DNA of 54,511 bases, taken from a virus. Its lineage: Duplodnaviria > Caudoviricetes. Where the stretch lies: the IMG/VR virus record IMGVR_UViG_3300042475_000999, positions 1-54,511 of that record. One strand, 5' to 3'. This document shows, one piece after another, positions 1-54,511 of this stretch. The notes beneath the pieces were generated by a model that saw nothing but the letters and a program-made list of their open reading frames with translations, did no database searches and had not been told where the DNA came from. The number at the start of each line of letters is the position of its first letter. Positions within the stretch are counted from its first letter, which is position 1. A program made the position numbers and the translations under genes.

Positions 1-203
1 CGGTGACTCCAGCTGTGACCCCAGCGGTTACTCCTGCTGTTACGCCAGCTGTAACGCCAGCGGTTACTCCTGCTGTTACGCCAGCTGTGACCCCAGCGGT
101 GACTCCAGCTGTGACCCCAGCGGTTACTCCTGCTGTTACGCCAGCGGTGACTCCTGCTGTAACGCCAGCTGTAACTCCAGCTGTGACTCCTGCTGTAACT
201 CCA
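1..203 (+). repeat. 12-bp degenerate tandem repeat encoding (VTPA)n, about 16-17 units
   Basis: gtgactccagct/gttactcctgct/gttacgccagct units vary only at third codon positions. Confidence 0.95.
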
Positions 204-1115
204 ACAACTACGCCTTTGGTTGGCGTTGACTGGATTGATAGAACACCACCACCTGTAGTACCACCTGGGGCTTTGCCTGTAGTACCATCTGAGCCTCCAG
301 TAGTGCCGCCTGTTGTACCACCTGAGCCGCCTGTAGTACCACCTGAAGTTGTACCACCTGTTGATGACGTTACGACAACAGACCCTACAAAGACAACAAC
401 TACAAAGACGCCAACTACGAAGACGCCGCCTAAAAAAGAACAGCAGTCAGGCGCGCTTGGCGCGGTTACAATGCCAACAAGCACTGGCGCGTTGCCCGGG
501 ACTTTGACCCCTACAATGCTGGCTGGCGCATCTATTAAGGACAACTCTGGAATGGCGCAACTCACGCAACTTTACCCGCAACTGGCTAATGTGGACCCCA
601 CGCTGTTACAAGTCTTGACAGGCCGCATTAAACCTAATATGGCTACGGCCGCTGAAACTGAAGAAGGCACAAGCTTTGTTGGCGCCAAGCTTGCAGGCGC
701 CCCATCTCCCGGGAATCCTGTAAGCGGCAACGACAATAGCACTGTAATTCCTGGGTACGACACAGGCAATATGACAGCAGCAGGATTAAAATACCTTGGT
801 GGAAGCCCGTTAGCAGGTTACGCTAGAGGCGGCCAAGTAGAGCATATTCCCGAGTTCATCACAGGAAAGACAGGCAATTACGTGCAAGGTGCAGGTGATG
901 GCCAATCAGACAGTATTCCTGCCATGTTGGCGGATGGCGAGTACGTATTTGATGCGGATACGGTTGCAGCATTGGGTAATGGCTCAAATAAGGCTGGTGC
1001 CCAAGTTTTGGATAAAATGCGTGAAAGCATTAGAAAACATAAAAGATCAGCCCCAGTGGGTAAAATACCACCTAAAGCTAAGTCACCCCTGTCGTATTTG
1101 AAAGGCATGAAATGA
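1..1115 (+). CDS. C-terminal part of a giant low-complexity virion (probably ejected/internal) protein; 5'-truncated
   Basis: Frame is open from the window edge (the GTG at 3 is a repeat codon). VTPA and PPVV repeats are followed by YARGGQV and the GxGDGQSDSIPAMLADGEYV module typical of phage virion/tape-measure-like C-termini. Stop overlaps the next ATG (ATGA). Confidence 0.75.
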   Translation, partial: VTPAVTPAVTPAVTPAVTPAVTPAVTPAVTPAVTPAVTPAVTPAVTPAVTPAVTPAVTPAVTPAVTPTTTPLVGVDWIDRTPPPVVPPGALPVVPSEPPVVPPVVPPEPPVVPPEVVPPVDDVTTTDPTKTTTTKTPTTKTPPKKEQQSGALGAVTMPTSTGALPGTLTPTMLAGASIKDNSGMAQLTQLYPQLANVDPTLLQVLTGRIKPNMATAAETEEGTSFVGAKLAGAPSPGNPVSGNDNSTVIPGYDTGNMTAAGLKYLGGSPLAGYARGGQVEHIPEFITGKTGNYVQGAGDGQSDSIPAMLADGEYVFDADTVAALGNGSNKAGAQVLDKMRESIRKHKRSAPVGKIPPKAKSPLSYLKGMK

Positions 1116-2164
1116 GTTTAATGCAAGGCAGCCCACTGCCGAATATCACCACGACGCAGAATCAGGTAACGTCCGCCCCATCTTGGTACACCGACTATTT
1201 AAGTGACTTGGCAAAAGGCGTTACTGCAGGGGTTTCAAACGCGCAATACGCAAATGCACAGCCACTGCAAACTGCGGCTTTTGAAAAGGCTGCAACAACA
1301 ACCAATACGTACCCTGGGTACTTTACTCAAGCATTGCAATCAACGAGTGATATTGGAAAAGCAGATATTACTGCAAAGCCTGTAGATCCAAAGACAGGTC
1401 AGTTAATTCCTGACGGGCAAAGCAGAATTGAACAGTTCATGAACCCATACACAACGCAGGTTGTGGATGCATTAGGTTCATTAGGTCAACGCAATATTCA
1501 GCAATTCTTAGCCCCACAGGCTACGGCATCTGCAGTTGGCACTGGCCAATTCGGTTCTAAGCGTGGCGCCGAGGTTCTTGGTCAAGCCATTAACACCGGC
1601 TTAATGAATACGCAAGCTGCGCAGTCACAGGCATTGCAATCTGGTTATACTGAAGCGTTGCGTGCTGCACAAGCTGATCAAGCGCAAAAGCTAGGTGCTG
1701 CTCAGCAATACGGGAGTCTTGCAACTGCAGGCCAAGCCGCTAACTTGGCAGACATTAACGCGTTGGCCACCATGGGTAGTCAACAACAAACTATCAATCA
1801 AAATCAGCAACTGTTTCCATTGACAGCTGCCAACTTAGGCGCACAAGCATTGCGTGGTTACAACGTACCAACAACTGTTGCTAATACCTACACAGGCCCA
1901 ATCCCTGGAGCTTACTCTGCTTCTCCATTGGCGCAGATTGCAGGCTTAGGCTCAATCATTGGCGGCGTAAGTAATACAAACTTTGGAAAAGCGGCAGGCA
2001 ATGCGCTAAGTAAGTTCTTCAGTGGCGGTACTGGAGGTGGTGATACAAGCGGTATGGGAACTATTGATCCTAATCAAATGCCGTTTGACTATGACTGGAC
2101 TCAAGACTTCCCTACTAACTTTGGTGGTAGCGGTAGTAACTCATTTGGTGAAGGCGAGTACTAA
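1112..2164 (+). CDS. Putative DNA ejection/pilot (internal virion) protein
   Basis: Q/A/G-rich helical protein with FMNPYTTQVV and GQFGSKRG motifs and a terminal glycine-rich hydrophobic stretch (LAQIAGLGSIIGG); located after the tail genes like podovirus ejection proteins. Confidence 0.6.
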   Translation: MSLMQGSPLPNITTTQNQVTSAPSWYTDYLSDLAKGVTAGVSNAQYANAQPLQTAAFEKAATTTNTYPGYFTQALQSTSDIGKADITAKPVDPKTGQLIPDGQSRIEQFMNPYTTQVVDALGSLGQRNIQQFLAPQATASAVGTGQFGSKRGAEVLGQAINTGLMNTQAAQSQALQSGYTEALRAAQADQAQKLGAAQQYGSLATAGQAANLADINALATMGSQQQTINQNQQLFPLTAANLGAQALRGYNVPTTVANTYTGPIPGAYSASPLAQIAGLGSIIGGVSNTNFGKAAGNALSKFFSGGTGGGDTSGMGTIDPNQMPFDYDWTQDFPTNFGGSGSNSFGEGEY

Positions 2165-2166
2165 TC

Positions 2167-3726
2167 ATGGCAACACCAACAGGCGCATTACCTTCATCAA
2201 TGCCATTTATGATTGGCGGTGATGACAAGGCTAAATCAGAATATTTTGATGCAATTCAAAAGACTCTTGCAGCCTTGGAAGCAAGAACACAGCAAGGTCC
2301 TAACTTATTTCAAGTTGGCGCAGCCTTATTAGATCCCGGCCGCACAGGCAACTTTGGTGAGGCAGTTGGCAGAGCAGCAGGTGTTGTTGGTCAATACCAA
2401 GAAAAGCAACGTGAAGCTGAACTACCTATTGCGCAAATGCGTGCGCAGTTGGCTGGCCAAAAATATGAAGTAGAGAACCAAGGCAAGGCTTTGCAATTGC
2501 TTTCAGCAACATTAGGTGTTGCACCAGCGCAGGTTGAAGGCGTATTGTCAAGTGGCAATATGACTCCTGACGTGGCTGCAAAGCTTGCTAAGATCTACCC
2601 CATGGTTGCGCAGTTATCGCCTAAGGTTGGTGAAATTGTCAAAGGCACATTTACCATGCAGAATGAGATGGGCAAGCTTGGGCTTGACCGCGAGAAGTTT
2701 GTTGCTGAGCAAACTCAGCGTCAAGTTACCAACGCAGTTAAAGACCGCGAGCTTGGTATGACTGAAGCAGATCTCATTGCTAAGTATGGCGCTGACATTG
2801 TCCCACTTATGCCCGGTGGCAAACGTCTTGGCGATATACCTAAGCCTGCCCCTGCGCCAACTACAGCAATGCCCGGTGCTCCAGCGGTAATGCCCGGAGC
2901 TGCTCCAGGTCCTGTACCCGGCGCTCCAGTTCCGCCGCCTGTTGTTATGCCGTTGGTTGCGCAGCAACAAGCAGGCCAACCGCCAGCACCTGCAGTTACT
3001 GCGCAGCCGCCAATGCCTACACCCGGGCAAGCGCCTAGGGCAAGTGATTTGCAAGGTATGCCTTTGCAATCACGGGCTGAAATTGAAAAGCGTCGTGTTG
3101 AAGAGGCTGATAAGTCATTCAATCTTAAGCGTGATGAGATCCTTAACTACACGCCGCAGTTATTGGAATCATCCAATACTAACTTGAAGCAGTTGAATGA
3201 GATTGCAACGCGTAGACCGCAAATCTTTGCGATAATGCAAGAAAAAGGTTTGCTTTCTGGTTTGCTGACTGCAGCGCAAGAAGGTGCACAAGCACAAGCC
3301 GGCACTTATACTGCGCGACTTGGGTTGCCAGTTAAAGACTTTTTGCAACGCGTTAAGCTTGAGCCTGAAGATCAGCAAGCAGTTCGCGACGTAAGCCGTA
3401 TCTTGGGGACTGAATTCTTAGCCAACGTAAAAGCCAATAAGGGTTTGCTAGGTATTAACCCCACGGATAACGATGCAAGACTCTTGCAGGCGCCAATGGC
3501 AAGTATTGATGACTCATCAAAGGCTGTGCAATTATGGTCACGCCAGCAATTGCTATTGAATAAGCAGCGTGAAGCTTTGTACGGCGCCTATGATGGTTAT
3601 ACCCGTAGAGTTGGCCCCGCTGCTTCACCACGCCAATTCTTTAGCCCCGGCAGCGTGTATGAGAAGATCAATAAAGACTACGCCGATTATCGGATGCAGT
3701 TGTTCAGACAGTTTAACCCACAGTGA
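2167..3726 (+). CDS. Putative internal virion/ejection protein
   Basis: 519-aa helical protein with a Pro-rich linker, tightly coupled in the late operon; function from position only. Confidence 0.5.
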   Translation: MATPTGALPSSMPFMIGGDDKAKSEYFDAIQKTLAALEARTQQGPNLFQVGAALLDPGRTGNFGEAVGRAAGVVGQYQEKQREAELPIAQMRAQLAGQKYEVENQGKALQLLSATLGVAPAQVEGVLSSGNMTPDVAAKLAKIYPMVAQLSPKVGEIVKGTFTMQNEMGKLGLDREKFVAEQTQRQVTNAVKDRELGMTEADLIAKYGADIVPLMPGGKRLGDIPKPAPAPTTAMPGAPAVMPGAAPGPVPGAPVPPPVVMPLVAQQQAGQPPAPAVTAQPPMPTPGQAPRASDLQGMPLQSRAEIEKRRVEEADKSFNLKRDEILNYTPQLLESSNTNLKQLNEIATRRPQIFAIMQEKGLLSGLLTAAQEGAQAQAGTYTARLGLPVKDFLQRVKLEPEDQQAVRDVSRILGTEFLANVKANKGLLGINPTDNDARLLQAPMASIDDSSKAVQLWSRQQLLLNKQREALYGAYDGYTRRVGPAASPRQFFSPGSVYEKINKDYADYRMQLFRQFNPQ

Positions 3727-3734
3727 GTTGACAT

Positions 3735-4754
3735 ATGGCAAAAGACGATAAGCTAGACGCCATTATTTTTGGCGACCCACAGAGTGCACCGCAAACTGAA
3801 AGTTTAGGGGAACTCGACGACATCTTTACCATGCCAATTGGGCCTGCAAAGACTGCGCCAAGTACAACTAAAAAGCCAAAGACTTTGGCGCCTATGCTAG
3901 GTTTATCACCGGATGAAGAGAAGGCTGTTGCCACTGGCGTAGGTGCTGTGTCTGGCCCGCTTGTACAAAAAGGCATGTCAAAGCTATTGCCGACAAAGGA
4001 AATGCGAACAGCCGAAGGCGTTAAGAAACTACAGGAGGAGCAGCGTGTTAAAGACATGTTGCTAAAACTACGCGATGAAGAATTACTTAAAGCAGGTATC
4101 CAACCTGAGCAATTGGCTACGCCTAAAGCTCAAACTTCTGGCACAAAATGGTATCAAAATTGGGCAGGCGGCTCAAAAGAAATTGCAGGCGGCGTACCAG
4201 AAGCTGCAGCAACTTATCAGCGCAGTAAAGGCCAAGGCGAAGTTACCAAAAAATTAACCAAGAAGTTTGGGCCTGACATTTATAGCGCAGGTGAGCCCGG
4301 GCAAATTAAAGAATCTTTGGTGGATAGACTTATTAGACAAGGCAAGGAAGCCGAGGCTGCCACTTCTGCAAGAGCTGCTGCTACACCAGCTGCCGAAGCG
4401 GCGGCTGCTAAACGATTGGCTGATGCAACTCCAGGGCCAATGTCTAAGTTGGCAAATGTTGCCAAAGCACCACTTGTTGGCGGTGCCTTAGGCGGTGCAG
4501 GAGCTGGTATGAGCTTTTATGAAGCTTATCAGCGGTACATGAATGGCGACCGCTCTGGCATGGTGCTATCAGCTTTGGCCGGCGCTGGTGGTTTAATGTC
4601 TATGGTCCCAGGGCTTCAAATTCCAGGGCTTGCCTTAGGCTTAGGCGCCACAGGAGCTCAGTATGCTTTGGATAAGTATAATGAGCCTGCAGCGCCTAAG
4701 GTTAACCCTATGGCTTTACCCCCACCATCGGAACCGCCGGGGTCTGTGCGGTAG
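3735..4754 (+). CDS. Putative internal virion protein with C-terminal glycine-zipper hydrophobic helices
   Basis: Last gene of the rightward operon; GGALGGAGAG and LAGAGGLMSMVPG motifs; converges on the leftward arm. Confidence 0.5.
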   Translation: MAKDDKLDAIIFGDPQSAPQTESLGELDDIFTMPIGPAKTAPSTTKKPKTLAPMLGLSPDEEKAVATGVGAVSGPLVQKGMSKLLPTKEMRTAEGVKKLQEEQRVKDMLLKLRDEELLKAGIQPEQLATPKAQTSGTKWYQNWAGGSKEIAGGVPEAAATYQRSKGQGEVTKKLTKKFGPDIYSAGEPGQIKESLVDRLIRQGKEAEAATSARAAATPAAEAAAAKRLADATPGPMSKLANVAKAPLVGGALGGAGAGMSFYEAYQRYMNGDRSGMVLSALAGAGGLMSMVPGLQIPGLALGLGATGAQYALDKYNEPAAPKVNPMALPPPSEPPGSVR

Positions 4755-5046: not shown

Positions 5047-5243
5047 TTCTTGATGGAGATGAACTGCGGCACCTCGATAGGTTGGTCAAGTGCTTCAATG
5101 CCTCTGGCAGACCGCGACCTAAAGTCATACCATTTTTTGACGTAGGCAGGATCCTCGGATGGAGGAACCCAGTTATAAACACGGCGCCATCTTTCGGTGA
5201 CGCAAGTTGATGAAGGTGTATACACAAAATCTTCGGTTGTCAT
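5031..5243 (-). CDS. Hypothetical protein
   Basis: ATGA overlap with the upstream gene at 5240-5243. Confidence 0.6.
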   Translation of the reverse strand: MTTEDFVYTPSSTCVTERWRRVYNWVPPSEDPAYVKKWYDFRSRSARGIEALDQPIEVPQFISIKKWKKQ

Positions 5244-5947
5244 AAGTCTTGTCCTTTAGTTTGTAGCCACATGCGGAGGGTTGACATGCCTCCATCTATT
5301 AAAACATGATTAGGGAATGCTTGGTACTTGTGGTACAGCGGGTGGTTGATGAAGTTCTTCATCAAAAGGTATGCATTAGCTTGTGGCGGTGACATACCCA
5401 TGGCTCTGTCGGTGTCAATACATTTTACCTCGTACCGATCAGAGAATTCTTTGGTGATGGCGTGGACCTGATCACCCAGCAACCCAATGATGACTACCTT
5501 AGGCAATGTCTTGCCAGATGCGCCATACGTTGGATTGTGCTTTTCAATCTTAAACTCATGCTCAAGCTCTTTAACAGCAACTTGCAGGCTTTCACGAAGC
5601 CCCAGAATGAATCGTTGTGTAATAGTATTCACCAACTGCTCAACGAGATCAACTGGTGCATCGATTCTAGGCATCACCAGTGGCGCTGGAGGCATTATTT
5701 CCACAGGTGTGGTAGTTTCCACCACCTTTCGCTTTGGCACATCCTGCATGGCACGTACCTTAAGCTCTTTGATTAAGTCAGGCACTGCAGAATGACTTTG
5801 CATAGTACGACGACGATCAGGTGACAGTACAATTTGCGCTTGCCTAAGCGACGCAATTGGGCTGTAAGTGCCTGAGTTGTAATACTCCACAGCGGTCATG
5901 ATAACTAGATCACGTTCACGTTTTGTCCAGCGAATTTTAGGTAACAT
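5240..5947 (-). CDS. Hypothetical protein with C-terminal small Rossmann-like (DUF2325-like) domain
   Basis: Start moved to ATG 5947 (MLPKIRW) behind the GAAAGGA SD; C-terminus KVVIIGLLGDQ...YLLMKNFINH. Confidence 0.6.
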   Translation of the reverse strand: MLPKIRWTKRERDLVIMTAVEYYNSGTYSPIASLRQAQIVLSPDRRRTMQSHSAVPDLIKELKVRAMQDVPKRKVVETTTPVEIMPPAPLVMPRIDAPVDLVEQLVNTITQRFILGLRESLQVAVKELEHEFKIEKHNPTYGASGKTLPKVVIIGLLGDQVHAITKEFSDRYEVKCIDTDRAMGMSPPQANAYLLMKNFINHPLYHKYQAFPNHVLIDGGMSTLRMWLQTKGQDL

Positions 5948-5950
5948 TTC

Positions 5951-5968
5951 AATTCCTTTCAATAGTCA
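5951..5968 (-). promoter_or_regulatory. Conserved 18-bp leader motif copy 1 (TGACTATTGAAAGGAATT)
   Basis: One of four near-identical copies immediately upstream of leftward start codons; contains an SD. Confidence 0.75.
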
Positions 5969-6011: not shown

Positions 6012-6186
6012 CGTCTTTTGTACTTATTACATCTTGCCAAACCATGGCCGAAGCCATTTCCACTTTTAGAGCGGCCAATGCCGTCAGTATGTCCTCCATT
6101 TGATAACCGTCACGAATAAGTTCAAAAACAAATATTCTAAGTTCTTTTTGAACAGCGAATGATAAATCTACACGTTCGATAGCCAT
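6004..6186 (-). CDS. Small hypothetical protein
   Basis: Fills the gap in the operon and overlaps the end of the TS-like gene. Confidence 0.55.
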   Translation of the reverse strand: MAIERVDLSFAVQKELRIFVFELIRDGYQMEDILTALAALKVEMASAMVWQDVISTKDVI

Positions 6187-6950
6187 TTTGCAAACTCAAA
6201 AGTAGGGTTGATGGATTTGCCTGCCAAAAGGTTGGCCTCGTACCGGTTGATACGTGGGGGCTTGTCTTCAACTGGCAAATGCAAATTAGCGTTAATGATG
6301 TCATTGAACATGGTCAATCGAGACTCATAGACGTGGAAAGAACCTGCAGATATTGTCAATGTTCCCATCTCAGCGCCAACCAAGTTAGCCACAATTTCCT
6401 GCAGAAAGCTGAAAGTTGGCAAGTCATTTGCCATGCCCCAAAGAATATCTTGGCTACGCATGATAGCTCTGGCGTTCAATCTGCCATTCCTGATTCTGAA
6501 CTCAATGGCCAGCGTGCATGGAACATCCTTTGCCTCTATATCCATATGGTCTATGTCAGTGCCATACATTGGAATCACAGCACGGCGGGACATTGGATCT
6601 TGCGTAAGCAACTTTGCAATATGCAGAGCGCCGTGTTTGCCAAACCAATAACTGCCGTAGTTGCTATTCAACTTGCCGTTGGCTACGATCTTGCCCCACT
6701 GCGCAGCGTGATCAGCAATGCTAAGATCATACGGGTCAGCCTTGATGTACCAAGCCATTTCGCGCTTAAGGTACTTCACATTGAAGTTACGACCTTTGAA
6801 TGAGTTGAACCTTACAAAGGGGTTGACCGTGTAAGTAAAGTTTTCAATCTCAAGGCATTTTTCGCCGCGTGGACTTGTCCAAGTGCCATGCTTTTGCAGC
6901 ACGTTGTAAAGATTGATGAGCTCAGGCTCATTGCGAATCAGCATTTCCAT
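6168..6950 (-). CDS. Thymidylate synthase-superfamily enzyme, dCMP hydroxymethylase-like
   Basis: Catalytic DVPC, SRRAVI and MRSQDILWGMAND (Asp at the specificity position, as in T4 gp42 RSND..FGFRND) plus SFHVYE. Confidence 0.8.
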   Translation of the reverse strand: MEMLIRNEPELINLYNVLQKHGTWTSPRGEKCLEIENFTYTVNPFVRFNSFKGRNFNVKYLKREMAWYIKADPYDLSIADHAAQWGKIVANGKLNSNYGSYWFGKHGALHIAKLLTQDPMSRRAVIPMYGTDIDHMDIEAKDVPCTLAIEFRIRNGRLNARAIMRSQDILWGMANDLPTFSFLQEIVANLVGAEMGTLTISAGSFHVYESRLTMFNDIINANLHLPVEDKPPRINRYEANLLAGKSINPTFEFAKWLSNV

Positions 6951-7869
6951 AATCAGCTTCCGTAATTAAATAGGGTTGGTCGGGGTAATGTTGCATGTGA
7001 TACAAAGGGGGTGGTAATTTAATTACAGGCACTTCATTGTTTAATGCCCATGTGTAGGCATTGTTGCCAAGGGCGTAAATACGTTTTGGCTTCAACTGTT
7101 TGATGAAGCTTGAATCCATAGGTGTGCCTTGGTAAGTTTGAGTGTTAACCCAGTACAAACCAGTTTCAGGTACATTCTCACGCTCCAAGGTTTCAGCCAG
7201 CATTCTGCTAGGGCCATCATTATCCAAGAAGTTAATGAAAGGCACCACGGCTGCGGTGGACTTAACATTTGTGCGAGGCCCCTTGTCGCAAAGCATTAGT
7301 GTATTGCCTTCAACAAAGGCGCCGCCACCGGATGATTTGTTAGTCATTGTCTTGGTTGCAAGCTTAATGAACAACTCTTCTATATCATCTTTGGTATAGT
7401 CGTAGGTGATGACTGGCAGTGAGGTATCCATAGGCAGTGAGGAATAGCCTTCATACACTTGTTCCAATTGTTTGATATTGTCTAAGTACTCATCCTCAAT
7501 GCGATCTTTGAATGTTTGCATACACACTTCAAAATCAGGTTGACAATGAATAACCACAACGCCTCGTGCCAAGGCTGCACGCTCTAACATTCTACGGCGC
7601 GGCATATCAATGCGGTTATCGCCTTTACGATACACGCTGCCATAGATTGGCTCAGACAGCCATGACCTATCCATGATGACGTGGTCATCATAGGTCAACG
7701 CCGCTGTCATGCCGCGAAAATACGTACGGCAAAGGTCCTCGGTATTCATACCACGATAAGGACCATGCTTTACGACATGGGTCATCTTGTCCTTTTGCAA
7801 TCGTTGTCGCAAGGTCTCTGACAGGGTAGTCTTTCCCCCGCCATCAGCCCCTTCTAGAATTACGATCAT
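6928..7869 (-). CDS. dNMP (thymidylate kinase-like) kinase fused to a degenerate UDG-superfamily domain
   Basis: N-terminal ILEGADGGGKTT P-loop and DRSWLSEPIYG; C-terminal VPF..GPSRML..YWVN..PKRIYALGNNA..LPPPLY follows the UDG-fold pattern. Confidence 0.75.
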   Translation of the reverse strand: MIVILEGADGGGKTTLSETLRQRLQKDKMTHVVKHGPYRGMNTEDLCRTYFRGMTAALTYDDHVIMDRSWLSEPIYGSVYRKGDNRIDMPRRRMLERAALARGVVVIHCQPDFEVCMQTFKDRIEDEYLDNIKQLEQVYEGYSSLPMDTSLPVITYDYTKDDIEELFIKLATKTMTNKSSGGGAFVEGNTLMLCDKGPRTNVKSTAAVVPFINFLDNDGPSRMLAETLERENVPETGLYWVNTQTYQGTPMDSSFIKQLKPKRIYALGNNAYTWALNNEVPVIKLPPPLYHMQHYPDQPYLITEADYGNADSQ

Positions 7870-8755
7870 TTAAGATACCCTCAAGTTTTGATAGTGTGTC
7901 TTCAAGCGACGCGGTGCGCAAGTAAGTTGCCTGCTGCGCTGCAGTCAGTTGAAGTTGGTAATCATCCATGCTTTCTAATTCATGGAGTGTGTAATCATAC
8001 GATGGATCAATGACGCCAAGCTCTTTGGGGTCGCCACCAAGAACGCAGCCGGCATGCGCTGCGTGTAAATAACGAATACGCCACCAGCCGCAGCCTGCAT
8101 GCTTATACGTAGGGCAAAGAACGCCTTTATAACTGCCATACTGCCAAACAACATCGGACTCAAGGATTCTAGGCTGACCTAGTGCCTTGCCACCTACACT
8201 ATGTATAGGCCATGCAAGGTGCTGTGCCGTAGCCCAATCATGCGCCTCCTTTGAAAGGGATGCGTTGTACCACTCGGTTTTGCGACGATCCCAAGACATT
8301 TGATGCACAGCAGGCATTTCATACAGCGGGCTTGGATCCCATGCAATAATGTCTTCTACTGGCAAGCCCATGGCCTTGGTGCTGCCCCATGGAAATAATG
8401 GCGCAATCCATGTATGCTCACACAACGACTCGGGTGCAATCTTACTTTCCCATGATGGTAGGATCTTTTGGAAAGCCCAATCATCAAGGCAAACATAAGC
8501 ATCAAAGCGGCTTTCTAAGGCCCACAAGGCACCCTCGGGATCCAAAGCATTGTGATCCAAGGGGTATAGGTACACAAACACTTTGTCGTAACGGGTGAGG
8601 TCTTCACCTGATGTAACGGCACGATGATCAACATGATGCCCCATACGGCCAAAGGCTGATGCCATCAATTCAGGAATGGAAACAAACTTGGTTGAACTGG
8701 CACGCTGCGGATGGTTGGTATGCGTCTCTGTAACGCCGGTAATTAAGATATTCAT
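7844..8755 (-). CDS. Putative GT-B fold (DNA) glycosyltransferase
   Basis: N-terminal MNILITG...MGHHVD...YDKVFVY Rossmann start; C-terminal YKGVLCPTY..GWWRIRYLHAAHAGCVL resembles the GT-B donor-binding segment; adjacent to the hydroxymethylase and kinase. Confidence 0.6.
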   Translation of the reverse strand: MNILITGVTETHTNHPQRASSTKFVSIPELMASAFGRMGHHVDHRAVTSGEDLTRYDKVFVYLYPLDHNALDPEGALWALESRFDAYVCLDDWAFQKILPSWESKIAPESLCEHTWIAPLFPWGSTKAMGLPVEDIIAWDPSPLYEMPAVHQMSWDRRKTEWYNASLSKEAHDWATAQHLAWPIHSVGGKALGQPRILESDVVWQYGSYKGVLCPTYKHAGCGWWRIRYLHAAHAGCVLGGDPKELGVIDPSYDYTLHELESMDDYQLQLTAAQQATYLRTASLEDTLSKLEGILNDRNSRRG

Positions 8756-14721: not shown

Positions 14722-15087
14722 TTATTTACGACGAACGGTAAGTTCCCAGACCTCAGATGCTTCGGTCCCGGGGATGGCCTCACCAGCTTCCCACCGCTCA
14801 CGGAAGGCTGTTGAGGAAAGCCGCTTATGCAGCAATTCAAATTGGCTTGTCTGTGCGACATAGCCGTAAAAAGCTTGCCAATCTTTGATGGCAGGGTGCT
14901 TGGTCATTTTCATAGAGCATGATGCTTTATCAGATGCAGCTTGGCTAATGCCTGCATCAGACATAAGTGCCATGATGTCACCTTCAAGGCGACCAAGTTT
15001 GGCCGTCATGTCTTTGATTTTAGATGAGAGCTCTTCACGCTCGTTCTTGGTTGCGACGTAATCGTCGATCAATTCTTTAATGTTCAT
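14722..15087 (-). CDS. Conserved replication-module hypothetical protein (coiled coil + DW..FY..LL.KR motif)
   Basis: Start MNIKELID at 15087 overlaps the upstream stop (ATGA). Confidence 0.7.
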   Translation of the reverse strand: MNIKELIDDYVATKNEREELSSKIKDMTAKLGRLEGDIMALMSDAGISQAASDKASCSMKMTKHPAIKDWQAFYGYVAQTSQFELLHKRLSSTAFRERWEAGEAIPGTEASEVWELTVRRK

Positions 15088-15491
15088 GACTTTGCTTTCT
15101 GCTGTTCTGTTTGTATGATGGCCAACATCATGGCCTCGGGGGCTTGCCAACCCATAGGTTTGATAACGTCGTATTGTGAGCCGCGCAACGATCTGATGTA
15201 GTCATTAGCTGGTTCTTTGTTCATGTTGGCTTCGTGCACCACATTAAAAAGCTGGTCAAACGGCAACCCCATAGCATGTGCACAGCCCATGGTAACGTAG
15301 GTAAGATCAACCAAAGCATCAGCGGCGTCGACAAGGCTATTCTCCTCGCAAGCACGAAGGTATTCACTAAGCTCTTCCATGATGAAGCGAGCAAAGTAAC
15401 TGGCTTGCTCGGATGTAAGCAAGGTAGGTGTGGTGGAGACTGGCAGACCCATCTTGCGACGGAAGGCCAGTACTTTTTCTGAATTAGTCAT
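15084..15491 (-). CDS. MazG-like/PRA-PH nucleoside triphosphate pyrophosphohydrolase
   Basis: MEELSE...DAADALVDLTYV...VHEANMNK...KPMGWQAP; start set at MTNSEKV. Confidence 0.85.
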   Translation of the reverse strand: MTNSEKVLAFRRKMGLPVSTTPTLLTSEQASYFARFIMEELSEYLRACEENSLVDAADALVDLTYVTMGCAHAMGLPFDQLFNVVHEANMNKEPANDYIRSLRGSQYDVIKPMGWQAPEAMMLAIIQTEQQKAKS

Positions 15492-15936
15492 ATGCATAAT
15501 CATTTGCTGTTGTAGTACGTGCGGCGCATTCTTTGTACATAAGTGATTCAAATGCATTGCGGTTAGCTGGGTTAAGTGTTGCTGTAATGTCTTTGCCATC
15601 CATCAACACAACGTAATCAAAGCCAAGGCGCTTTACGCTATACAACACAACAATGTCGCGTTCAATGTCGCCATCACCCCACTCGGCTTGCCAATTGTCT
15701 AAGCCATAGTGATCTAAAGAGTATTCGTATTCATCTGGCATGGTAGGTTTTGGTGTTGTGTAGATGACGTATGCACTAAGATGGCCAAGAGCGCGTGCTG
15801 CTGCCATGCGCAATTCTAATTGCTCTTTGTATGATGCCAAGGCTGTAGCATCAGCAGGTACATTAAGAACAAAAGCCTCAATGCCTTGGTAAATTTCCTG
15901 CAGCTCGGTAAGAGGGATGCTTACAGTTTTAGTCAT
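15484..15936 (-). CDS. Hypothetical protein
   Basis: GGAGG SD before MTKTVSIP; ATGA overlap. Confidence 0.65.
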   Translation of the reverse strand: MTKTVSIPLTELQEIYQGIEAFVLNVPADATALASYKEQLELRMAAARALGHLSAYVIYTTPKPTMPDEYEYSLDHYGLDNWQAEWGDGDIERDIVVLYSVKRLGFDYVVLMDGKDITATLNPANRNAFESLMYKECAARTTTANDYAYD

Positions 15937-23297: not shown

Positions 23298-26200
23298 ATG
23301 TATGAAGTACCGTTTGGCGAAGAAGGTGGTAGCGGTGACTTAGACAAGATGCGATTGGCTTTGGCCAAACAGAATAGGCCTGCGCCTACGCCGCCGTCTG
23401 CAGCTTCGCAGATCCCCGGGTATGGCAAACCAGTCCCACCTGCGCAAACAAAGCCTGACCCCTTAGGCGCGGCGGCAGGTAACTTCACCGAGTTGGCTAC
23501 AAAGTACAACCCGCTGATGATGATGAAGTCCATGCAGGAGTCTGTGCGCACTCTCAACCCAGTCCCACCAATTGCGGGCGCATGGGCTGACGTGGCGCAA
23601 AACGTACAGACCGCCGGCGCAGAGGCGATGTACGACATACTTGGCAATCCGCAAGGTATTATGAAGATGCAAAAGAACTATGTGCCTGTTACTACAGGAC
23701 GGTTCTACCAAGCACCAACAACGCAGCTAGGCAAAGAGTTTGAGACAGATGTGACCAAGGCGATGGACGCGTCCAAGATGCCTGCCGTTTGGCCTATGGC
23801 CTTGAACCAGCCAATTAGACCGCCAATTACCCCTAATGACGTCCGCGTTATGGGCGCTGAGGCCACAAGAATAGGCAGGCAAGTCAAGGATATACCTACA
23901 GACTTCTACAACGCGCAATCCGGCCTGCAGAAGTTAGACCCGATCACAGGTCAGCCAACGTATGGCGCCAAGCTTCAGGGCGTGGCTGAAAGCGTAGGTG
24001 ACATTGCTGCAGCACGCCGAGCCGAAGGCAAGAGTCTGATCCCCGGGATTCCAGATGTCGTAACGCCTGAGACAAGTCTGTATGCAGTACGCCCGCAAGG
24101 CTCACGCTTGGTACGACCCACAGTGCCTGAAGGCGCAAACCTTTCTCGCACTTGGGACAAAGAAGTTTTGGAAGATGTTAGCACTGGGCCAATGTCGCCT
24201 AGTGGAGCTTGGAACGTTATTGATAACACTGTGTTGGCGCAGGGCCCGCAACGTACGGCGTTTCGAAAGTTCATGGAAGATAAGTACAAAGAGATGTATC
24301 CGGACGCGCCGTCGATTACAGAAGCCAAAGACGCGTTTCAGACAATGTATAACAATAGAGATACAAGGGCTGCTAAGGTCTTAGAATTCTATGATGAGTT
24401 TCTCCAAGCGCCTGAAGGCGCAATTGTAGGCGCAAACAACTTACTTACACCAACTGAAGTCAAAGCTCGTCATGACGCGGCTTCGCAATGGCTTAACAGC
24501 AATTTGCTTAACTACATTCAAAAGAACGTAGGCACAGAAGGCGACCCCTTGGTTAAAGCAGCCAGTGAAGGTCTTACTTTTTTGCCTTCTGAAAAGTATG
24601 AAAACGCGTTGCAATCAACGGGTGGTAAGTCTAACGTCGAGGAAAACAGACGCAGAGGCAACATGCCTATTGAAGGCAGCCTTGCTGAGCCTATTGCAAA
24701 GAAAGAGTCTGAGCTTGCTGAGGCGCAAAGCAAGCTTAATGAGATTGAAGCCAAGCGTCGTAACTTGTCAGACATTGCCATGAAGCAAGGTTTGCCCGAT
24801 CCGGCAATGCTGCCTGAGTACGCGGCACTGACCAACCCGGTGCGCAACGCTGTTCGTGAGCGTGACAGAGTCGAAGAGCAGCTTGACAACTTAAAGCTGG
24901 GGCGTAAATATGAGGCAGCTGTTGACTATGGCGTGACTCCGCATACTGCTGAAGACTTCCTGGGTCGTAAGTTGGAGTACAGCGAACGTCAGTTCTATCC
25001 CACGGTACTAAAGACGCCTCCACAAGAAAATGTGTACCGCACATACGGCGCGCACTTGGATGCGCTAGGCTTTAATAAGTTGGCGCAAAGCTTTTACAGC
25101 GACGTTATGTCAGGCGACATACCGCTGGACAAAGTCGGTAAGATGACCGTAGAGAACTACGTACGCAAAACTGCCAAGGCTAGAGTTGATGAAGAAAGAC
25201 TTGCTAAGGAAGCGGCCAAGGCGTATAAGCGTAATGCTGAAGCAACACTGCAACAGCGCGCTGCAGCCATACCCAATGACAAGACCTTTGGCAATGCAGG
25301 TATGATTGAGCTTACCAAAGACACACCGGAGTACGACATCATTCGTACTATGAGTGAAGACACCGCGGTGTTGGATCATTGCGTAGGACAGGGTGGCTCA
25401 GCTAGAGGCAGTGAAGACAGGAACCCATGGTACGGCAATAGCCAACGTTCATATGAACCTATCCTTGACTTGGTAACAGGCCAACCTAACCCACGCGCCA
25501 GTAGTGATAGAACATCGTATGTTAACTACGTGCAAAATGGAGACAAGATTATTAGTGTGCGTGACTTGACTACGGGCTTGCCGCAAGCAACATTGCATCT
25601 TGAGCAATCTCGCATCGGCAATAGCGGCCAGCAAAAGTACAGCATTGGCTACGCATCGGGTCACCAAAATGGCGACATTGACGCCAAGTACTCAGGCGCA
25701 ATTAGGGATTACCTAAACTCAATTGCTGACGAGATCGATAGCTCGGGTCATAACTTGCAAAGCCATGCCGGTGTGTTTGACATGTATGACGGCGGCTTTC
25801 TTAATGACATGCGCAAGCAACTTAACATGAGCAAGCAGGAGCTTTCAAAGTATAACTTGGAAGATATGCTGCCACGCTTCATGACCGTGTCCGATGCGCG
25901 CGCTGCGATCAAGGCTGCTAATCTTGCCAATGCAGAACCTGCCAAAGCTGAGCTGATTGAACTAAACGCTGCAATAGAAGATGCAATACAAGAGCATGCT
26001 GATCTTATGCGCGTGGCAAGACGCAGACCAATGGATGACGCAGACCGCAATCACGTTGCCGAGTTGGAAGCCAATATAAATACTATGCGTCAGCGTATTA
26101 GAGATCTTGAGCAACCTGTGGTGGCACCTGTGCCTGCAACGCAGTCTAACATGACGTACCGCACGCCTTCACTTGTTGAGGCAAATACTATCATTGGTAG

Positions 26201-28889
26201 TCTTGATGACGTAGGCAACTCGCAGATGATTGACTTGCGCAATGATGTCAGTGAAAGAGCAAGAGAACAGTTTATGAATACGTATGCAGAGTTGGCAAGA
26301 CAGCAAGGTCTTACTACTGTGACCATAGACAACATTGCAGATTTTGGACGTGCATTAAGCGGTTTACGTGACGACATAAACGCACAGATTGCGCACAATA
26401 GAACAGCGGGCTTTGAAGGTAGGGCAGTTGCCGAGGCTTTCACAAACGTTAATGACGTACTTAATAGGCATATTGACAACTTGGCAACAGGACCGGATGA
26501 GGCTGCTGCAGTGGCTGGTGCCTTGATGGCTGACCCTGAGCTTTTTGCTAATGCGCCTGCGCCACGACAAACCGGCGCATTACCCCCTGATGAGTTTGAT
26601 GCACTAACTAGGCGCGTAATGGCAGACTTTGCTGACGACCCTGTTAGAATGAGAAACTTAATTCGCAATTTGCAGCTTGGGTTTACTGATTTACAAACAA
26701 TTGCAAACTTGCCTTTTGAGCAACAAGCAATAACAGCAGCTGCACTTGGCGACGCATTAGAACGCGCAACGCTTAACCCTAATGGTGTACCTGCGCCGCA
26801 ACCAAACAATCAGGCTGAAGTTGCACAAACAATTCGTGACATGGCTGCGCAACGCACTGAAAACTTACGACAGATTGACCCAGACTTAGGCAATCAGATG
26901 GATACCATTGTCACTGAAACTGCTGCGTTTTATTCACCTGCAACTGCGCCTCGAAGGTTTGCGAATGCTATTCGCGGTGCAGGGATTCAGGCTGAAGCTG
27001 AAGCTTTGCGCAATGCATTAGCAGCATTGGCAAACACAGTTGACTCGATTGTTGACCTCGCTGATCAACTTCCTGCGCAACTGCCTGCAGTTCGTGAGCC
27101 TGACGAGTTTGACCCCGAGACTTTCTTTAGCAACTATGTTGAAGATCTTAGACGCACAATGCCAACAGATGATCTCATACGCTTTACGCGTGAGGTTGAA
27201 AACATTGCCCAATTTTTGAGCATGCGCGATAACACTGCAGAATTTGTAACGCGTCTACGTAGAGCCGGTGATCTTGCGCAATCTGAAATTACTGAGCTTA
27301 CGTTGTATGACCTTGCAGACCAGCTTGAGACTCGTATGCAAGAGCAACAAGAAGCGCAGCATCAACGTATGCTTGAGCCTATACGCGATCGAGAGGTCTT
27401 AAGCTTACTTGCAGACCCTGAGATAGACCCTGAAAATTTACGTGCCGTAGCATTTGCAATGGATGGTATGCCTAATGAGTATTGGTCGCCTTTATCAGAG
27501 CAGTATCGACGTGATGCAGTTATGCAATTACGTGAACGTGCCAATTACGGTGAGTTCAATGCTCGAAACTTTGCTGAGCGCCTTGCAACCGACGCAGGCT
27601 TAGACCTCGTTGAATTGCGCGATACAGTGGAAGCTTTAAATAATGAGCAGTTTGATCACGAGGTTTTACGAGGCTTACCTTTTGCAGAACGTAATCGTTC
27701 GGCGCAACGTACTGCAATGGAATTGTCGCAACTTATAAACCAGATTCAAAATGGCGAAGCCATTATCCCTCAGCAAATTGCGCAAGCACCCGACTTAGCG
27801 CATATAGGCACTGATTTGCTTAGAGATCAAATCACGCAAATGGAAACTGATACTGGCGGCGTCTGGGATCGCGTGAATCAGTCTATTGATCGCGTGTTAG
27901 GCGTTGCAAGACGCCAAGGCGCGGACGCAGATGCTGTGGGTCGCGCAATTAGGCAAGGCGTGTACATGGATCCAGACTCTACGCCTATAGAGCGTGAATA
28001 CATAGCGCGTGAGGTAGTTGCAGGTTTGCAAATGGACGCGCAACGTCCTGCACTTGCGCAAGCTGATCAACGTGAATTAGGTATTGGCAATCAACGACCT
28101 GTTGAAGTCACGCCTGCGGACCAAACTGACGCCAACATGATTGTTACGGCTTTGGATGAAGCGTACTATCAAGATGCTGATTCACCGCAGCAGGCACTGG
28201 CTCAAATTAACCAGAATCTTAGCTTGTTGCGTGATAGACCTACCGCTGCATTTGACGCTATTGTAGGCCCTGCAGGCGATGAATTTACGTACTCACCCGC
28301 ACTTGTGCAGGCCATGATCAATGAGCTTGAGATTCTTCGCAGTCAGTACCAAGCACTTATTGCAGGTGGCAACGCCAATGGCGGTCCAGTTCGTGGTTAC
28401 CAAGCCGGTGGATCAGTCAAAAAACCTGAAGTTAAAACGCCGTACCTGTTCAGTGTCCCGACTTACTCTGAGACTGTGGCCTATGAGATGTACCCCGGCC
28501 AAAAAGGGCAGAATGACCAGCGGGACGCTGCAAGACACATGTTGGCGGCAGGCACGCTTTCACGTAAGTATGGACCTAAGACTGCTGAGTTCCTAGGCAA
28601 AGCACACGAGTTTACGACTTCTCCACTCCAATCTGTCAAGTCCATGTTTACGGGTAAAATGCCTGCTGACTATGATATGGATACCCACAATAACACGATT
28701 GGGGCAAGGTTGGGGCAACGTGCTAAGTCACAGGCAGAGCTGGAAGATCTTGTACAAGAAGAAGCTGAGCGCGCATCTCGTACACAAACTCAGGATAAAG
28801 CCTTCATCAAGAAGGCAAATGGTGGTATAGTCCAACAAAATCCGACTACAGACCAAATGCGGTATGCACTTATGATGCGGAGAAAATAA
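23298..28889 (+). CDS. Giant (1863 aa) multidomain protein, polyvalent-protein-like, with PcfJ-like and C-terminal DUF6973-like domains
   Basis: EDTAVLDHCVG...IISVRD..GLPQATL (PcfJ-like); DAARHMLAAG..HE..MDTHNNTIG; three xxGGxV motifs near the C-terminus. Confidence 0.7.
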   Translation: MYEVPFGEEGGSGDLDKMRLALAKQNRPAPTPPSAASQIPGYGKPVPPAQTKPDPLGAAAGNFTELATKYNPLMMMKSMQESVRTLNPVPPIAGAWADVAQNVQTAGAEAMYDILGNPQGIMKMQKNYVPVTTGRFYQAPTTQLGKEFETDVTKAMDASKMPAVWPMALNQPIRPPITPNDVRVMGAEATRIGRQVKDIPTDFYNAQSGLQKLDPITGQPTYGAKLQGVAESVGDIAAARRAEGKSLIPGIPDVVTPETSLYAVRPQGSRLVRPTVPEGANLSRTWDKEVLEDVSTGPMSPSGAWNVIDNTVLAQGPQRTAFRKFMEDKYKEMYPDAPSITEAKDAFQTMYNNRDTRAAKVLEFYDEFLQAPEGAIVGANNLLTPTEVKARHDAASQWLNSNLLNYIQKNVGTEGDPLVKAASEGLTFLPSEKYENALQSTGGKSNVEENRRRGNMPIEGSLAEPIAKKESELAEAQSKLNEIEAKRRNLSDIAMKQGLPDPAMLPEYAALTNPVRNAVRERDRVEEQLDNLKLGRKYEAAVDYGVTPHTAEDFLGRKLEYSERQFYPTVLKTPPQENVYRTYGAHLDALGFNKLAQSFYSDVMSGDIPLDKVGKMTVENYVRKTAKARVDEERLAKEAAKAYKRNAEATLQQRAAAIPNDKTFGNAGMIELTKDTPEYDIIRTMSEDTAVLDHCVGQGGSARGSEDRNPWYGNSQRSYEPILDLVTGQPNPRASSDRTSYVNYVQNGDKIISVRDLTTGLPQATLHLEQSRIGNSGQQKYSIGYASGHQNGDIDAKYSGAIRDYLNSIADEIDSSGHNLQSHAGVFDMYDGGFLNDMRKQLNMSKQELSKYNLEDMLPRFMTVSDARAAIKAANLANAEPAKAELIELNAAIEDAIQEHADLMRVARRRPMDDADRNHVAELEANINTMRQRIRDLEQPVVAPVPATQSNMTYRTPSLVEANTIIGSLDDVGNSQMIDLRNDVSERAREQFMNTYAELARQQGLTTVTIDNIADFGRALSGLRDDINAQIAHNRTAGFEGRAVAEAFTNVNDVLNRHIDNLATGPDEAAAVAGALMADPELFANAPAPRQTGALPPDEFDALTRRVMADFADDPVRMRNLIRNLQLGFTDLQTIANLPFEQQAITAAALGDALERATLNPNGVPAPQPNNQAEVAQTIRDMAAQRTENLRQIDPDLGNQMDTIVTETAAFYSPATAPRRFANAIRGAGIQAEAEALRNALAALANTVDSIVDLADQLPAQLPAVREPDEFDPETFFSNYVEDLRRTMPTDDLIRFTREVENIAQFLSMRDNTAEFVTRLRRAGDLAQSEITELTLYDLADQLETRMQEQQEAQHQRMLEPIRDREVLSLLADPEIDPENLRAVAFAMDGMPNEYWSPLSEQYRRDAVMQLRERANYGEFNARNFAERLATDAGLDLVELRDTVEALNNEQFDHEVLRGLPFAERNRSAQRTAMELSQLINQIQNGEAIIPQQIAQAPDLAHIGTDLLRDQITQMETDTGGVWDRVNQSIDRVLGVARRQGADADAVGRAIRQGVYMDPDSTPIEREYIAREVVAGLQMDAQRPALAQADQRELGIGNQRPVEVTPADQTDANMIVTALDEAYYQDADSPQQALAQINQNLSLLRDRPTAAFDAIVGPAGDEFTYSPALVQAMINELEILRSQYQALIAGGNANGGPVRGYQAGGSVKKPEVKTPYLFSVPTYSETVAYEMYPGQKGQNDQRDAARHMLAAGTLSRKYGPKTAEFLGKAHEFTTSPLQSVKSMFTGKMPADYDMDTHNNTIGARLGQRAKSQAELEDLVQEEAERASRTQTQDKAFIKKANGGIVQQNPTTDQMRYALMMRRK

Positions 28890-54100: not shown

Positions 54101-54511
54101 TTTGCCTAGCAACTTAACCGGTACAGGCAATGTTGTAGCAACAAGTGCAGACGGCACTGATCTTACATTTGAACAAGTATTCTCAGGCGAAACTACTAGT
54201 GAGCAAGATACAAGCTTAACAAACTATGTCAATAGTGTTTTAGGCCCTGCAAAAATTGAGCCTACTTTTGGTACAGGATCGCTTATAGGTACTACACCAA
54301 CTGGTGCGCTTACAACAACACCAGTAAGTACAACGTCTACAACCACAGGTGCGCTTTCTACAACACCCGCAAGTACAACACCAGTAAGTACGACACCAGT
54401 AAGTACGACACCAGTAAGTACGACACCTGCAACTACAGGCGCGCTTACTACAACACCTGCTGTTACGACTACGCCTAATGGCGCAGTAATAACAAATCCT
54501 TTGTCAACGGT
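51186..54511 (+). CDS. Giant T/A/G-rich virion protein, 3'-truncated (>1100 aa; not in ORF track)
   Basis: ATG at 51186 (MARFSDEQIADFVAANIGN...); read by hand with no stop found to the window end; glycine-zipper segments, TFNEAFAANR..F.WNGKLYNT motif, Thr-rich repeats. Confidence 0.8.
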   Translation, partial: MARFSDEQIADFVAANIGNPEAIASAAATYGISVADISRATGYAPSAVNTYFETASVAPPTPVYTPPPAPAPAYVPPPTTVRASAPTSGRVLEDTDEASIEQQVAAAPVLHSYSQVDPNNPAIVRQISYSTGEVLGTHILAGGGDQGLAKAAMPVIGMALNIIAPGAGAIIGNALGVSATTGAAILQAGLNVAGGASVEDAIKGVALSQVGGAATSALNSAIGPISSNPLVNNIVSNVASSVVNSVVTNQPITNLATTVLGTVVNTTVTAETGNSAIGAAAATLVTTGGNTTAAFNTLVNSAAGSFKATDAANIINQLQNSTAVTTGTEVAATVADAAGSTTGTTGTGALSTVGTGTGGSFDDFNLTDNSTVDTTVADTTGTTVADTTATTTTGTGTPSVLASVNNNVVSDAGNGVTLTGVDANTQATLDAIQNVNNIGTGTGALSTVGTGTTVADTSGAGTTVADTSGTGALGTVTTPVVDTNTYVDTEFGDLQGAIDRNAATTTKPLTFNEAFAANRLAFGPNATFEWNGKLYNTGTAAEAAAAADAKINALNKTNLSTVTNASQTVAAQNDTAARDAGTSNQSDAETRRLTALNNTLVLGNAPNESNAETQRLMESGQRSAADNLSAMGAQALGTTIRGAGSLITNIGNTYAQLTGDFDYSNTATKIGQELAELAQSKDGYGIDVQKNRIMQAVKQSESADFWDKPKIIGAAIIKNPIGFFDIAGTEAVEELPETAIQIGAALMTGGGSLALSSARLIQGTASVVGSFMEVFGSSGKETYQKSIAQGDSKQVAQDKSYISAGLNALAEMGPDFIADKALVAPLMKSLVDKTLTSVGAGYATNTAAGILSNFVAGAAQNYITAYTVNPNTANWSTALSNGVFESFIGGTVQTAMSTPGTVIDTGAVIGRDYSGNPVTVQQVLDGNSNIDLSTVDSSTPIATSSNGDSVTVGASMLYGDSVGLGSDVTGSILPSNLTGTGNVVATSADGTDLTFEQVFSGETTSEQDTSLTNYVNSVLGPAKIEPTFGTGSLIGTTPTGALTTTPVSTTSTTTGALSTTPASTTPVSTTPVSTTPVSTTPATTGALTTTPAVTTTPNGAVITNPLST
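54290..54475 (+). repeat. 15-bp tandem repeats encoding TTPVS and TTGALTT units
   Basis: acaccagtaagtacg repeated at about 54380-54425 with degenerate flanking copies. Confidence 0.85.

Follow-up and report, generated by a model that had tools for sequence, protein, structure and literature searches.

A phage thymidylate-kinase-like protein fused to a minimal uracil-DNA-glycosylase-fold domain with altered motifs, encoded beside a thymidylate synthase homologue

Why would a phage nucleotide kinase carry a DNA glycosylase fold at its C terminus, and what might that fold still do once several of its motif residues have been replaced? The question is raised by one gene in IMGVR_UViG_3300042475_000999, a whole virus record of 54,511 bases with a completeness estimate of 98% (hereafter, the window). 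The gene encodes a 313-residue protein that an earlier note, made from the letters alone, had read as a deoxynucleoside monophosphate (dNMP) kinase fused to an apparently inactivated domain with the fold of a uracil-DNA glycosylase (UDG). All strings quoted there were found in the translation: TLMLCDKGP (189-198), VPF (209-211), GPSRML, LYWVN, LKPKRIYALGNNA, and LPPPLY (285-290). The span given for them (6928-7330) corresponds to residues ~181-313, the C-terminal domain that follows the kinase.

At its N terminus the protein carries a complete dNMP kinase of the thymidylate kinase type. Residues 1-170 match PF02223 at 1.5e-8 (35 bits against a cut-off of 27) and phrog_761 at 6.3e-25, and a profile of the homologue family reached YorR (2axp) in the PDB at 5.1e-15. 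A full-length AlphaFold model was obtained with a predicted local distance difference test score (pLDDT) of 94.6 and a predicted template modelling score (pTM) of 0.92. Foldseek matched this model to YorR again (3kb2, 1.5e-7, TMt 0.76), then to thymidylate and deoxynucleoside kinases at 1e-7 to 1e-6. These results agree with the kinase identity proposed from the sequence. Conserved kinase residues in the family alignment include G7, D9, G12, and K13 of the P-loop, D67-R68, and R97. As the NCBIfam dTMP kinase equivalogs all fell below their cut-offs for the window protein, it is not a bona fide Tmk. YorR, encoded by the SPbeta prophage of B. subtilis, is the best match in both sequence and structure; unlike the window protein, this functionally uncharacterised protein of 173 residues lacks a UDG-like domain.

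To place the C-terminal domain (~135 amino acids, residues ~172-313), both profile and structure comparisons were used. These residues match nothing in Pfam, PHROG, or NCBIfam, and the curated UDG superfamily model PF03167 matched neither the fusion protein (E up to 1) nor any part of the 54.5-kb record. A profile of 89 homologues reached family 4 UDGs in the PDB (TM0511 1vk2 at 5.2e-4, 1l9g at 1.1e-3, and 1ui0 at 1.2e-3). A profile of the C-terminal domain alone matched 1l9g (E 0.005) in register across G.GN, VG[DE], PF, Y..N, ALG..A, and HP.Y. An AlphaFold model of the isolated domain (pLDDT 87.1) gave Foldseek matches that were exclusively family 4 UDG or UdgX from rank 1 to 33 (best 1ui1, E 8.8e-6, TMq 0.51), and VIA-align matches that were exclusively UDG-superfamily chains from rank 1 to 13 (Z 9.8 to 5.7). 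The top VIA-align match was UdgX (6ail; Z 9.8, root-mean-square deviation 2.8 over 120 residues), followed by TmUDG (9.4), the UDG domain of the phiLo polymerase (8.9), and the family 5 enzyme UDGb (8.4), with SMUG, MUG, UNG, TDG, and vaccinia D4 (8q3r, Z 5.7) further down. Structure matches in BFVD were phage UDGs and UDG domains fused to polymerases. As modelled, the domain is a four-stranded parallel alpha/beta UDG fold that, among solved structures, lies closest to family 4 UDGs and UdgX, and the fold assignment of the earlier note thus survived comparison with known structures. Assignment of the domain as an aGPT-Pplase was also considered and rejected, as that protein has a helix-hairpin-helix fold rather than a UDG fold.

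The domain shares its fold, motif order, and register with the family 4 UDGs and UdgX (1ui0/1ui1, 1l9g/1vk2, and 6ail of M. smegmatis), but is considerably reduced by comparison. It spans ~135 residues instead of 190-210, is fused to a kinase, and lacks the PG of GE.PG. The KCRPP.NR segment that follows the Asn is missing from the hidden Markov model (HMM) alignment. UDG families 4 and 5 carry a 4Fe-4S cluster (PMC4787834). As residues 172-313 contain a single Cys (C194), the domain lacks the four-Cys feature of family 4 and with it the cluster.

Individual residues were assigned from HMM alignments to TmUDG and UdgX together with the family alignment. C194-D195 fall on G51-E52 of UdgX within motif A, and relatives of the window protein have Gly at the C194 position. 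F211 aligns with the Phe of PFV, N242 with N91, P287 with H178, and Q293 with R184, six residues beyond the His. In UdgX, E52 activates the nucleophile, N91 and H178 hydrogen-bond uracil, and R184, which is conserved in family 4, holds the DNA backbone (PMC10359453). Most relatives keep equivalents of the acid, Asn, His, and Arg. In comparison, the window lineage (57 sources: the window and 56 IMG/VR loci, 60-100% identical) has exchanged Gly for Cys194, His for Pro287, and Arg for Gln293, while the window retains the acid D195, Phe211, and Asn242.

Both signature motifs of family 4 are therefore altered. Where family 4 has GE(A/G)PG, the window has LCDKGP and its relatives have VG[DE] with no PG. 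Where family 4 has HPS, with a His and an Arg at +6, the window has PPPLYHMQ and its relatives read [VI]PHPQYWKR. Two family 4 features are present, namely the uracil-contacting Asn (N242) and the Phe of PF (F211). In the family alignment, Arg occupies +6 in 20 of 20 rows outside the lineage and Gln in 14 of 14 rows within it; all lineage rows also carry a His three residues past the lost one (LPPPLYHM). Glu235 lies outside the UDG motifs and is a family-specific invariant residue. By fold the domain belongs to the UDG superfamily, but four defining features of family 4 fail (GE.PG, the His of HPS, the clamp Arg, and the Fe-S cluster) and the domain does not reach the Pfam threshold. It is a distinct, minimal, fused family.

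We then surveyed the family using the C-terminal domain alone as query (E <= 1e-3, representatives at 50% identity). The search revealed 264 clusters, nearly all composed of proteins of ~280-325 amino acids with the domain at the C terminus; fusion is therefore the rule. Some matches were shorter and are possibly fragments or free-standing domains. A free-standing viral protein of 152 amino acids in BFVD (A0A8D4KHD5) resembles the domain (Foldseek 1.4e-10), and an Atlas search with the domain returned, as a lead only, small viral clusters of 124-137 amino acids at a score of 0.89, in which 18-36% of the members carry PF03167. The UDG-like module may thus also occur unfused. The fusion itself was found in uncultured phages of about 50-60 kb and in cultured Stenotrophomonas and Pseudoxanthomonas phages, and public records label it only as 'thymidylate kinase'.

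Residue counts were taken from 150 listed representatives among the 264 clusters. The motif-A acid is present in 139 (D in 81, E in 58), the Asn in 149, and PF in 132. Survey of the motif-B His, which the earlier note had called for, showed that 139 representatives retain it; the remainder have Q (4), D (2), A (1), R (1), or P (1), with the site uncovered in 2. Because 139 of 150 keep the His, its loss in the window is a derived state. By these counts, the ancestral UDG domain looks catalytically complete.

The altered motifs are fixed within the window lineage. LMLCD[KR]GP together with LPPPL[YH]H[ML] describes all 57 sources apart from the wording of L048, which reads LLLCDKGP and LPPPLHHI, and the Cys-Asp, Pro, and Gln states are present in 57 of 57. 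The reported departure from GE.PG and the replacement of His by Pro are thus properties of the whole lineage. One lineage member (L050, record G012) is 110,994 bases long with direct terminal repeats and is rated 100% complete, compared with the usual 50-58 kb; this record could be a concatemer or a larger relative.

To determine whether the domain is decaying, we compared substitution rates among 54 unique nucleotide sequences of the lineage (1431 pairs, of which 88 were usable with dS, the synonymous rate, between 0.05 and 1.5). The UDG-like domain had a median ratio of nonsynonymous to synonymous rates (dN/dS) of 0.036, against 0.041 in the kinase; its median dN was 0.20 versus 0.27, and 39% of its sites were invariant versus 32%. 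The UDG-like domain is therefore under purifying selection as strong as that on the kinase and is not decaying. Invariant segments of the lineage included GGG.F, L.LCD.GP, PF.NF, GPSRM, YW.NTQ, ALGNNA, and KLPPPL.H.Q.

A small group of representatives (P0080, P0082, P0083, P0116, and P0163) has lost the motif-A acid, reading C[SG] (S-S in P0116), and carries Q or A in place of the His; P0080-type proteins also end shortly past motif B. They are 40-46% identical to the window lineage, compared with mostly 23-39%, and at most 41%, for other representatives. Both share the LC, GGG, and VVP[FY]INF features. Judged by these identities and shared features, the P0080-type group appears to be the nearest to the window lineage, and possibly its sister. 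No contig bearing a P0080-type protein was found among the viral or metagenome contigs searched.

The genes on either side of the fusion suggest the pathway in which it acts. The fusion is the middle member of a trio, lying between a 303-residue protein upstream and a thymidylate synthase (TS) homologue downstream. It shares 26 nt with the upstream gene at its start and 23 nt with the TS-like gene at its stop, and the three overlapping genes are translationally coupled. Of 82 sources of the fusion, 78 also have a TS-like gene, which in nearly every case comes immediately downstream, and three of the four sources without it are contigs cut at that gene. The TS homologue best matches the CMP hydroxymethylase MilA (5b6d, 9.2e-18) and the deoxycytidine monophosphate (dCMP) hydroxymethylase of phage T4 (1b49, 5.1e-13) in the PDB, with thymidylate synthases ranking below. 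Alignment to 1b49 places C145 and D176 on C148 and D179 of the T4 enzyme. Co-occurrence with an Asp-type TS had been raised as a check, and the Asp was present in all 77 loci in which the site was covered and was invariant in 25 of 25 aligned rows. By these residues the downstream gene encodes a TS homologue of the dCMP-hydroxymethylase type, with hydroxymethylation and methylation of dCMP both fitting the sequence. The substrate of the fused kinase is most likely 5-hydroxymethyl-dCMP (hm-dCMP) supplied by this neighbour, as suggested by fold, motifs, and strict gene linkage. Prediction of a complex between the UDG-like domain and a TS-like protein dimer, run without controls, scored 0.00, which counts neither for nor against an interaction.

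The upstream 303-residue protein was found in 57 of 57 lineage sources and at two other loci (L062 and L076), whereas whole-record searches of 10 others detected it in none, with 5 of 5 positive controls recovered. It had no match in Pfam, NCBIfam, or PDB profiles, and its PHROG family, phrog_14998, is of unknown function. A tblastn search returned 42 phage records, including T4-like Aeromonas phages, Gordonia phages, some of them annotated as glycosyltransferase, and Erwinia phage FBB1, in which the homologue adjoins a UDP-galactopyranose mutase gene. Atlas yielded one weak Glyco_trans_1_2 lead, on 12% of the members of one cluster. The protein may represent an undescribed family of DNA sugar transferases. 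A MazG-like protein encoded elsewhere in the same operon is, from its context, a candidate for the dCTPase of the pathway.

The precursor pathway for 5-hydroxymethylcytosine (hmC) in phage T4 comprises the dCMP hydroxymethylase gp42, the dNMP kinase gp1, the dCTPase gp56, and glucosyltransferases. Like T4, the window combines in one genome a TS homologue with equivalents of Cys148 and Asp179, a dNMP kinase, a nucleotide pyrophosphohydrolase, and a candidate sugar transferase. In contrast to T4, its kinase resembles TMK and YorR, bears an extra UDG-fold domain, and has no demonstrated kinship to gp1; its transferase family is unnamed. Homology and linkage together suggest that the phage probably swaps genomic cytosine for sugar-decorated hydroxymethylcytosine. 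The cultured relative AXL3 encodes the fusion as gp29 (30% identity over 96%), surrounded by an NTP pyrophosphohydrolase, a TS homologue, and a dCMP deaminase (gp27). AXL3 DNA withstood 35 of the 37 restriction enzymes tried, all having G/C in their recognition sites (PMC7504290). That paper names gp29 a thymidylate kinase and does not use the word glycosylase.

The distribution of dCMP deaminase separates the window lineage from the rest of the family. PF00383 scored above its cut-off in 15 of 15 records outside the lineage, and in none of 10 lineage records, five of them 97-100% complete, although deaminases of other families would escape this search. In the three records compared by coordinates (G005, G008, and G016), the deaminase directly follows the TS-like gene; the common cassette is therefore kinase-UDG, hydroxymethylase, and deaminase. 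The lineage without the deaminase is also the lineage that lost the His, Gly, and Arg. At the deaminase position of relatives, the window encodes a 240-residue protein (5240..5962, minus strand, downstream of the TS-like gene) that has no family match and was seen in 38 of 82 sources.

Our data tentatively favour, at somewhat less than even chances, a two-domain enzyme of T4-style cytosine replacement, in which a 5-hm-dCMP kinase is joined to a UDG module that ancestrally policed uracil-type bases and here serves as a non-excising or slow binding module. Breakdown of dCTP would be followed by hydroxymethylation (or methylation) of dCMP and phosphorylation by the fused kinase, whose kinase half would turn the hydroxymethylase product into 5-hm-dCDP; a sugar would then probably be added on the DNA. 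The C-terminal domain derives from family-4-type UDGs but no longer carries their Fe-S cluster or RPP.NR DNA-binding segment. In relatives, the deaminase would supply deoxyuridine monophosphate (dUMP), possibly also hm-dUMP, and a TMK-like kinase could pass both on. Their catalytically complete fused module would then remove the resulting U or 5-hydroxymethyluracil (hmU) from hmC DNA. Because most relatives keep the full catalytic set and encode dCMP deaminase, excision of U or 5-hmU is the most likely ancestral job. The window lineage no longer has the deaminase as a source of such bases, and its DNA is probably glycosylated. There the module would have lost its transition-state help and its grip on DNA, with the pocket floor (Asp195, Phe211, and Asn242) kept under selection. 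Given that three functional positions have changed, the pocket floor is invariant, and purifying selection is strong, we infer a pyrimidine-binding pocket without conventional turnover, presumably kept since it is still useful to the kinase or the pathway. In this account the fold, motif states, gene linkage, selection, and deaminase pattern are direct results, and the substrates, the loss of excision, and the present role are inferred.

Several observations weigh against this interpretation. Loss of the His is no proof that excision was lost, because Mug/TDG glycosylases are active without a motif-B His (PMC4787834). For this reason 'inactivated' says more than the sequence does: the His, Gly, and Arg equivalents have been replaced, but D195, Phe211, and Asn242 are retained, selection is strong, and Mug/TDG enzymes work without the His. 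The joint pattern of deaminase and His is effectively one evolutionary contrast; as the window lineage is a single clade, it counts once and not ten times. Furthermore, the deaminase is present in the record of L073, which lacks the His, and in that of L062, which lacks the acid. The TS homologue fits dCMP methylation as well as hydroxymethylation, and a repair role leaves the fusion to a kinase unexplained.

The retained pocket could also belong to an active enzyme. A His-independent glycosylase like Mug/TDG, removing 5-hmU, U, or T from deaminated (glycosyl-)hmC, would account for the invariance of D195, Phe211, and Asn242 and for the pocket motifs being the most conserved in the domain. Family 2 UDGs are active with MPSSAR instead of HPS (PMC4787834), and the His three residues past the lost one, found in all lineage rows, could be relevant here. 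The simultaneous change of three functional positions, including the Arg that would contact the DNA backbone, makes such an enzyme unlikely, as does loss of the acid in the nearest, P0080-type group, which suggests that catalysis was relaxed in this branch. Slightly less likely still is that the lineage turned the pocket into a reader of the phage's own modified pyrimidine, as a flipped base or free nucleotide, tying the hm-dCMP kinase to substrate supply or to replicating DNA, with the fused module of the wider family co-evolving with the deaminase as an inbuilt guard against uracil-type bases. As a separate possibility, a free nucleotide (hm-dCMP, dUMP, or hm-dUMP) might make the pocket a substrate-capture, filtering, or allosteric site for the kinase. 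Loss of the DNA clamp Arg with the base-pocket floor kept is consistent with this, as are the PDB complex of UdgX with dUMP (6ajp) and the prediction of both domains in one confident arrangement (pTM 0.92). However, the kinase domain is already equipped with a full NMP site of the TMK type and the His-bearing relatives resemble DNA enzymes, and we consider a free-nucleotide site doubtful.

Comparably doubtful is a role in which the base pocket is not needed, the domain acting as a protein-docking or DNA-tethering scaffold that keeps the kinase within a complex for dNTP synthesis or replication. Vaccinia D4, a UDG fold within the viral polymerase holoenzyme and one of our structure matches, offers an analogy, and some family A polymerases of phages carry a fused UDG domain (9qhs, Z 8.9; PMC13697223). 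Translational coupling of the three genes and the invariant Glu235 outside the UDG motifs would also suit a scaffold. Conservation centres on the pocket motifs, however, and not on a surface patch, and no partner protein was identified. Finally, by analogy with kinases that act on DNA, the UDG fold could flip 5-hmC (or 5-hmU) for the P-loop domain to phosphorylate its hydroxymethyl group. P-loop kinases acting on 5-hydroxymethyldeoxyuridine (5-hmdU) in DNA do co-occur with TS-family hydroxymethylases (PMC5889632, PMC8989533), and a base-flipping domain joined to a kinase would suit such chemistry. The evidence nevertheless makes this very improbable. The window kinase has the DR motif of TMK and matches dNMP kinases. 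A tblastn search of 50,697 phage records returned 21, none of the ViI, M6, SP10, or W-14 type. The helical 5-HMUDK domain was not found in a Pfam scan of the protein (E up to 1), nor aGPT-Pplase in Pfam scans of 15 window open reading frames (ORFs), and a pre-replicative hm-dCMP route requires precisely such a dNMP kinase.

Related arrangements are known from phages with modified DNA. In phiLo (9qhs), a family-4-like UDG domain is likewise fused to an enzyme of DNA metabolism, and inactive versions are reported in N4-like phages (PMC13697223). The phiLo-type partner is a family A polymerase and the modified base is thymine, whereas the window domain is joined to a nucleotide kinase within a putative cytosine-directed pathway. 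Thymidine-hypermodifying phages also encode a P-loop kinase, the 5-hmdU DNA kinase, beside a TS-family hydroxymethylase; that pathway is post-replicative with aGPT-Pplase partners (PMC5889632, PMC8989533), and no phage of its ViI, M6, SP10, or W-14 groups was among the 21 records that tblastn returned for the window protein. We found no paper on a kinase-UDG fusion among titles and abstracts, a search that did not extend to the supplements of PMC8989533 and PMC5889632, which list kinase fusions. New here are the UdgX residue map with its lost Arg, the family-wide counts, the measurement of selection, and the deaminase pattern.

Phage pathways for DNA hypermodification provide both anti-restriction biology and enzymes that handle modified bases. 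Should the UDG module protect hmC genomes from deaminated pyrimidines, it would represent a new UDG family, minimal and without the cluster, that might be specific for hmU. If it is instead a reader, a glycosylase fold would have been recruited by a nucleotide-synthesis enzyme for specificity or tethering. The window lineage is a natural experiment in this respect, with the His and the DNA clamp lost, the pocket kept, and the deaminase absent; comparison with His-bearing relatives would be informative about the purpose of the module.

Table 1. Coordinates of the kinase-UDG fusion, its domains and motifs, and associated genes in the 54,511-base window.
Feature	Position	Strand	Basis
Kinase-UDG-like fusion, whole gene, 313 aa	6928..7869	-	ORF
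Thymidylate-kinase-like P-loop dNMP kinase domain, residues 1-170	7360..7869	-	PF02223, phrog_761, YorR matches
Stripped-down family-4-type UDG-fold domain, residues ~177-300, single Cys	6970..7341	-	Profiles, model, structure matches
Motif A equivalent LMLCDKGP, residues 191-198	7276..7299	-	Alignment to VG[DE] (relatives), IGE/VGE (UdgX, TmUDG)
LYWVN, residues 238-242; N242 equivalent to the uracil-binding Asn	7144..7158	-	Alignment to YICN (1l9g), YVTN (UdgX)
Motif B equivalent LPPPLYHMQ, residues 285-293	6991..7017	-	Relatives read [VI]PHPQYWKR
Thymidylate synthase homologue, dCMP-hydroxymethylase type (C145, D176), downstream	6168..6950	-	PF00303 5e-18; PDB alignment
303-aa unnamed family, candidate DNA sugar transferase, upstream	7844..8755	-	phrog_14998; tblastn neighbours
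MazG-like nucleotide pyrophosphohydrolase, candidate dCTPase	15084..15599	-	phrog_671 5.7e-25

The fusion lies within a long minus-strand early/replication operon that starts near 17.5 kb, extends to about 4.7 kb, and encodes DUF932, the MazG-like pyrophosphohydrolase, a family A DNA polymerase, a PD-(D/E)XK nuclease, an SNF2 helicase, and the coupled trio. A megablast search with the first 25 kb of the record gave no matches among phage records. Beyond the operon, four successive plus-strand ORFs of 370, 350, 519, and 339 amino acids occupy 3..4754, with no Pfam match and only chance-level NCBIfam matches. Two further plus-strand ORFs are very long, one of 1863 amino acids (23298..28889) and one of 1108 amino acids that runs off the record end (51186..54509), and probably encode virion or injected proteins.

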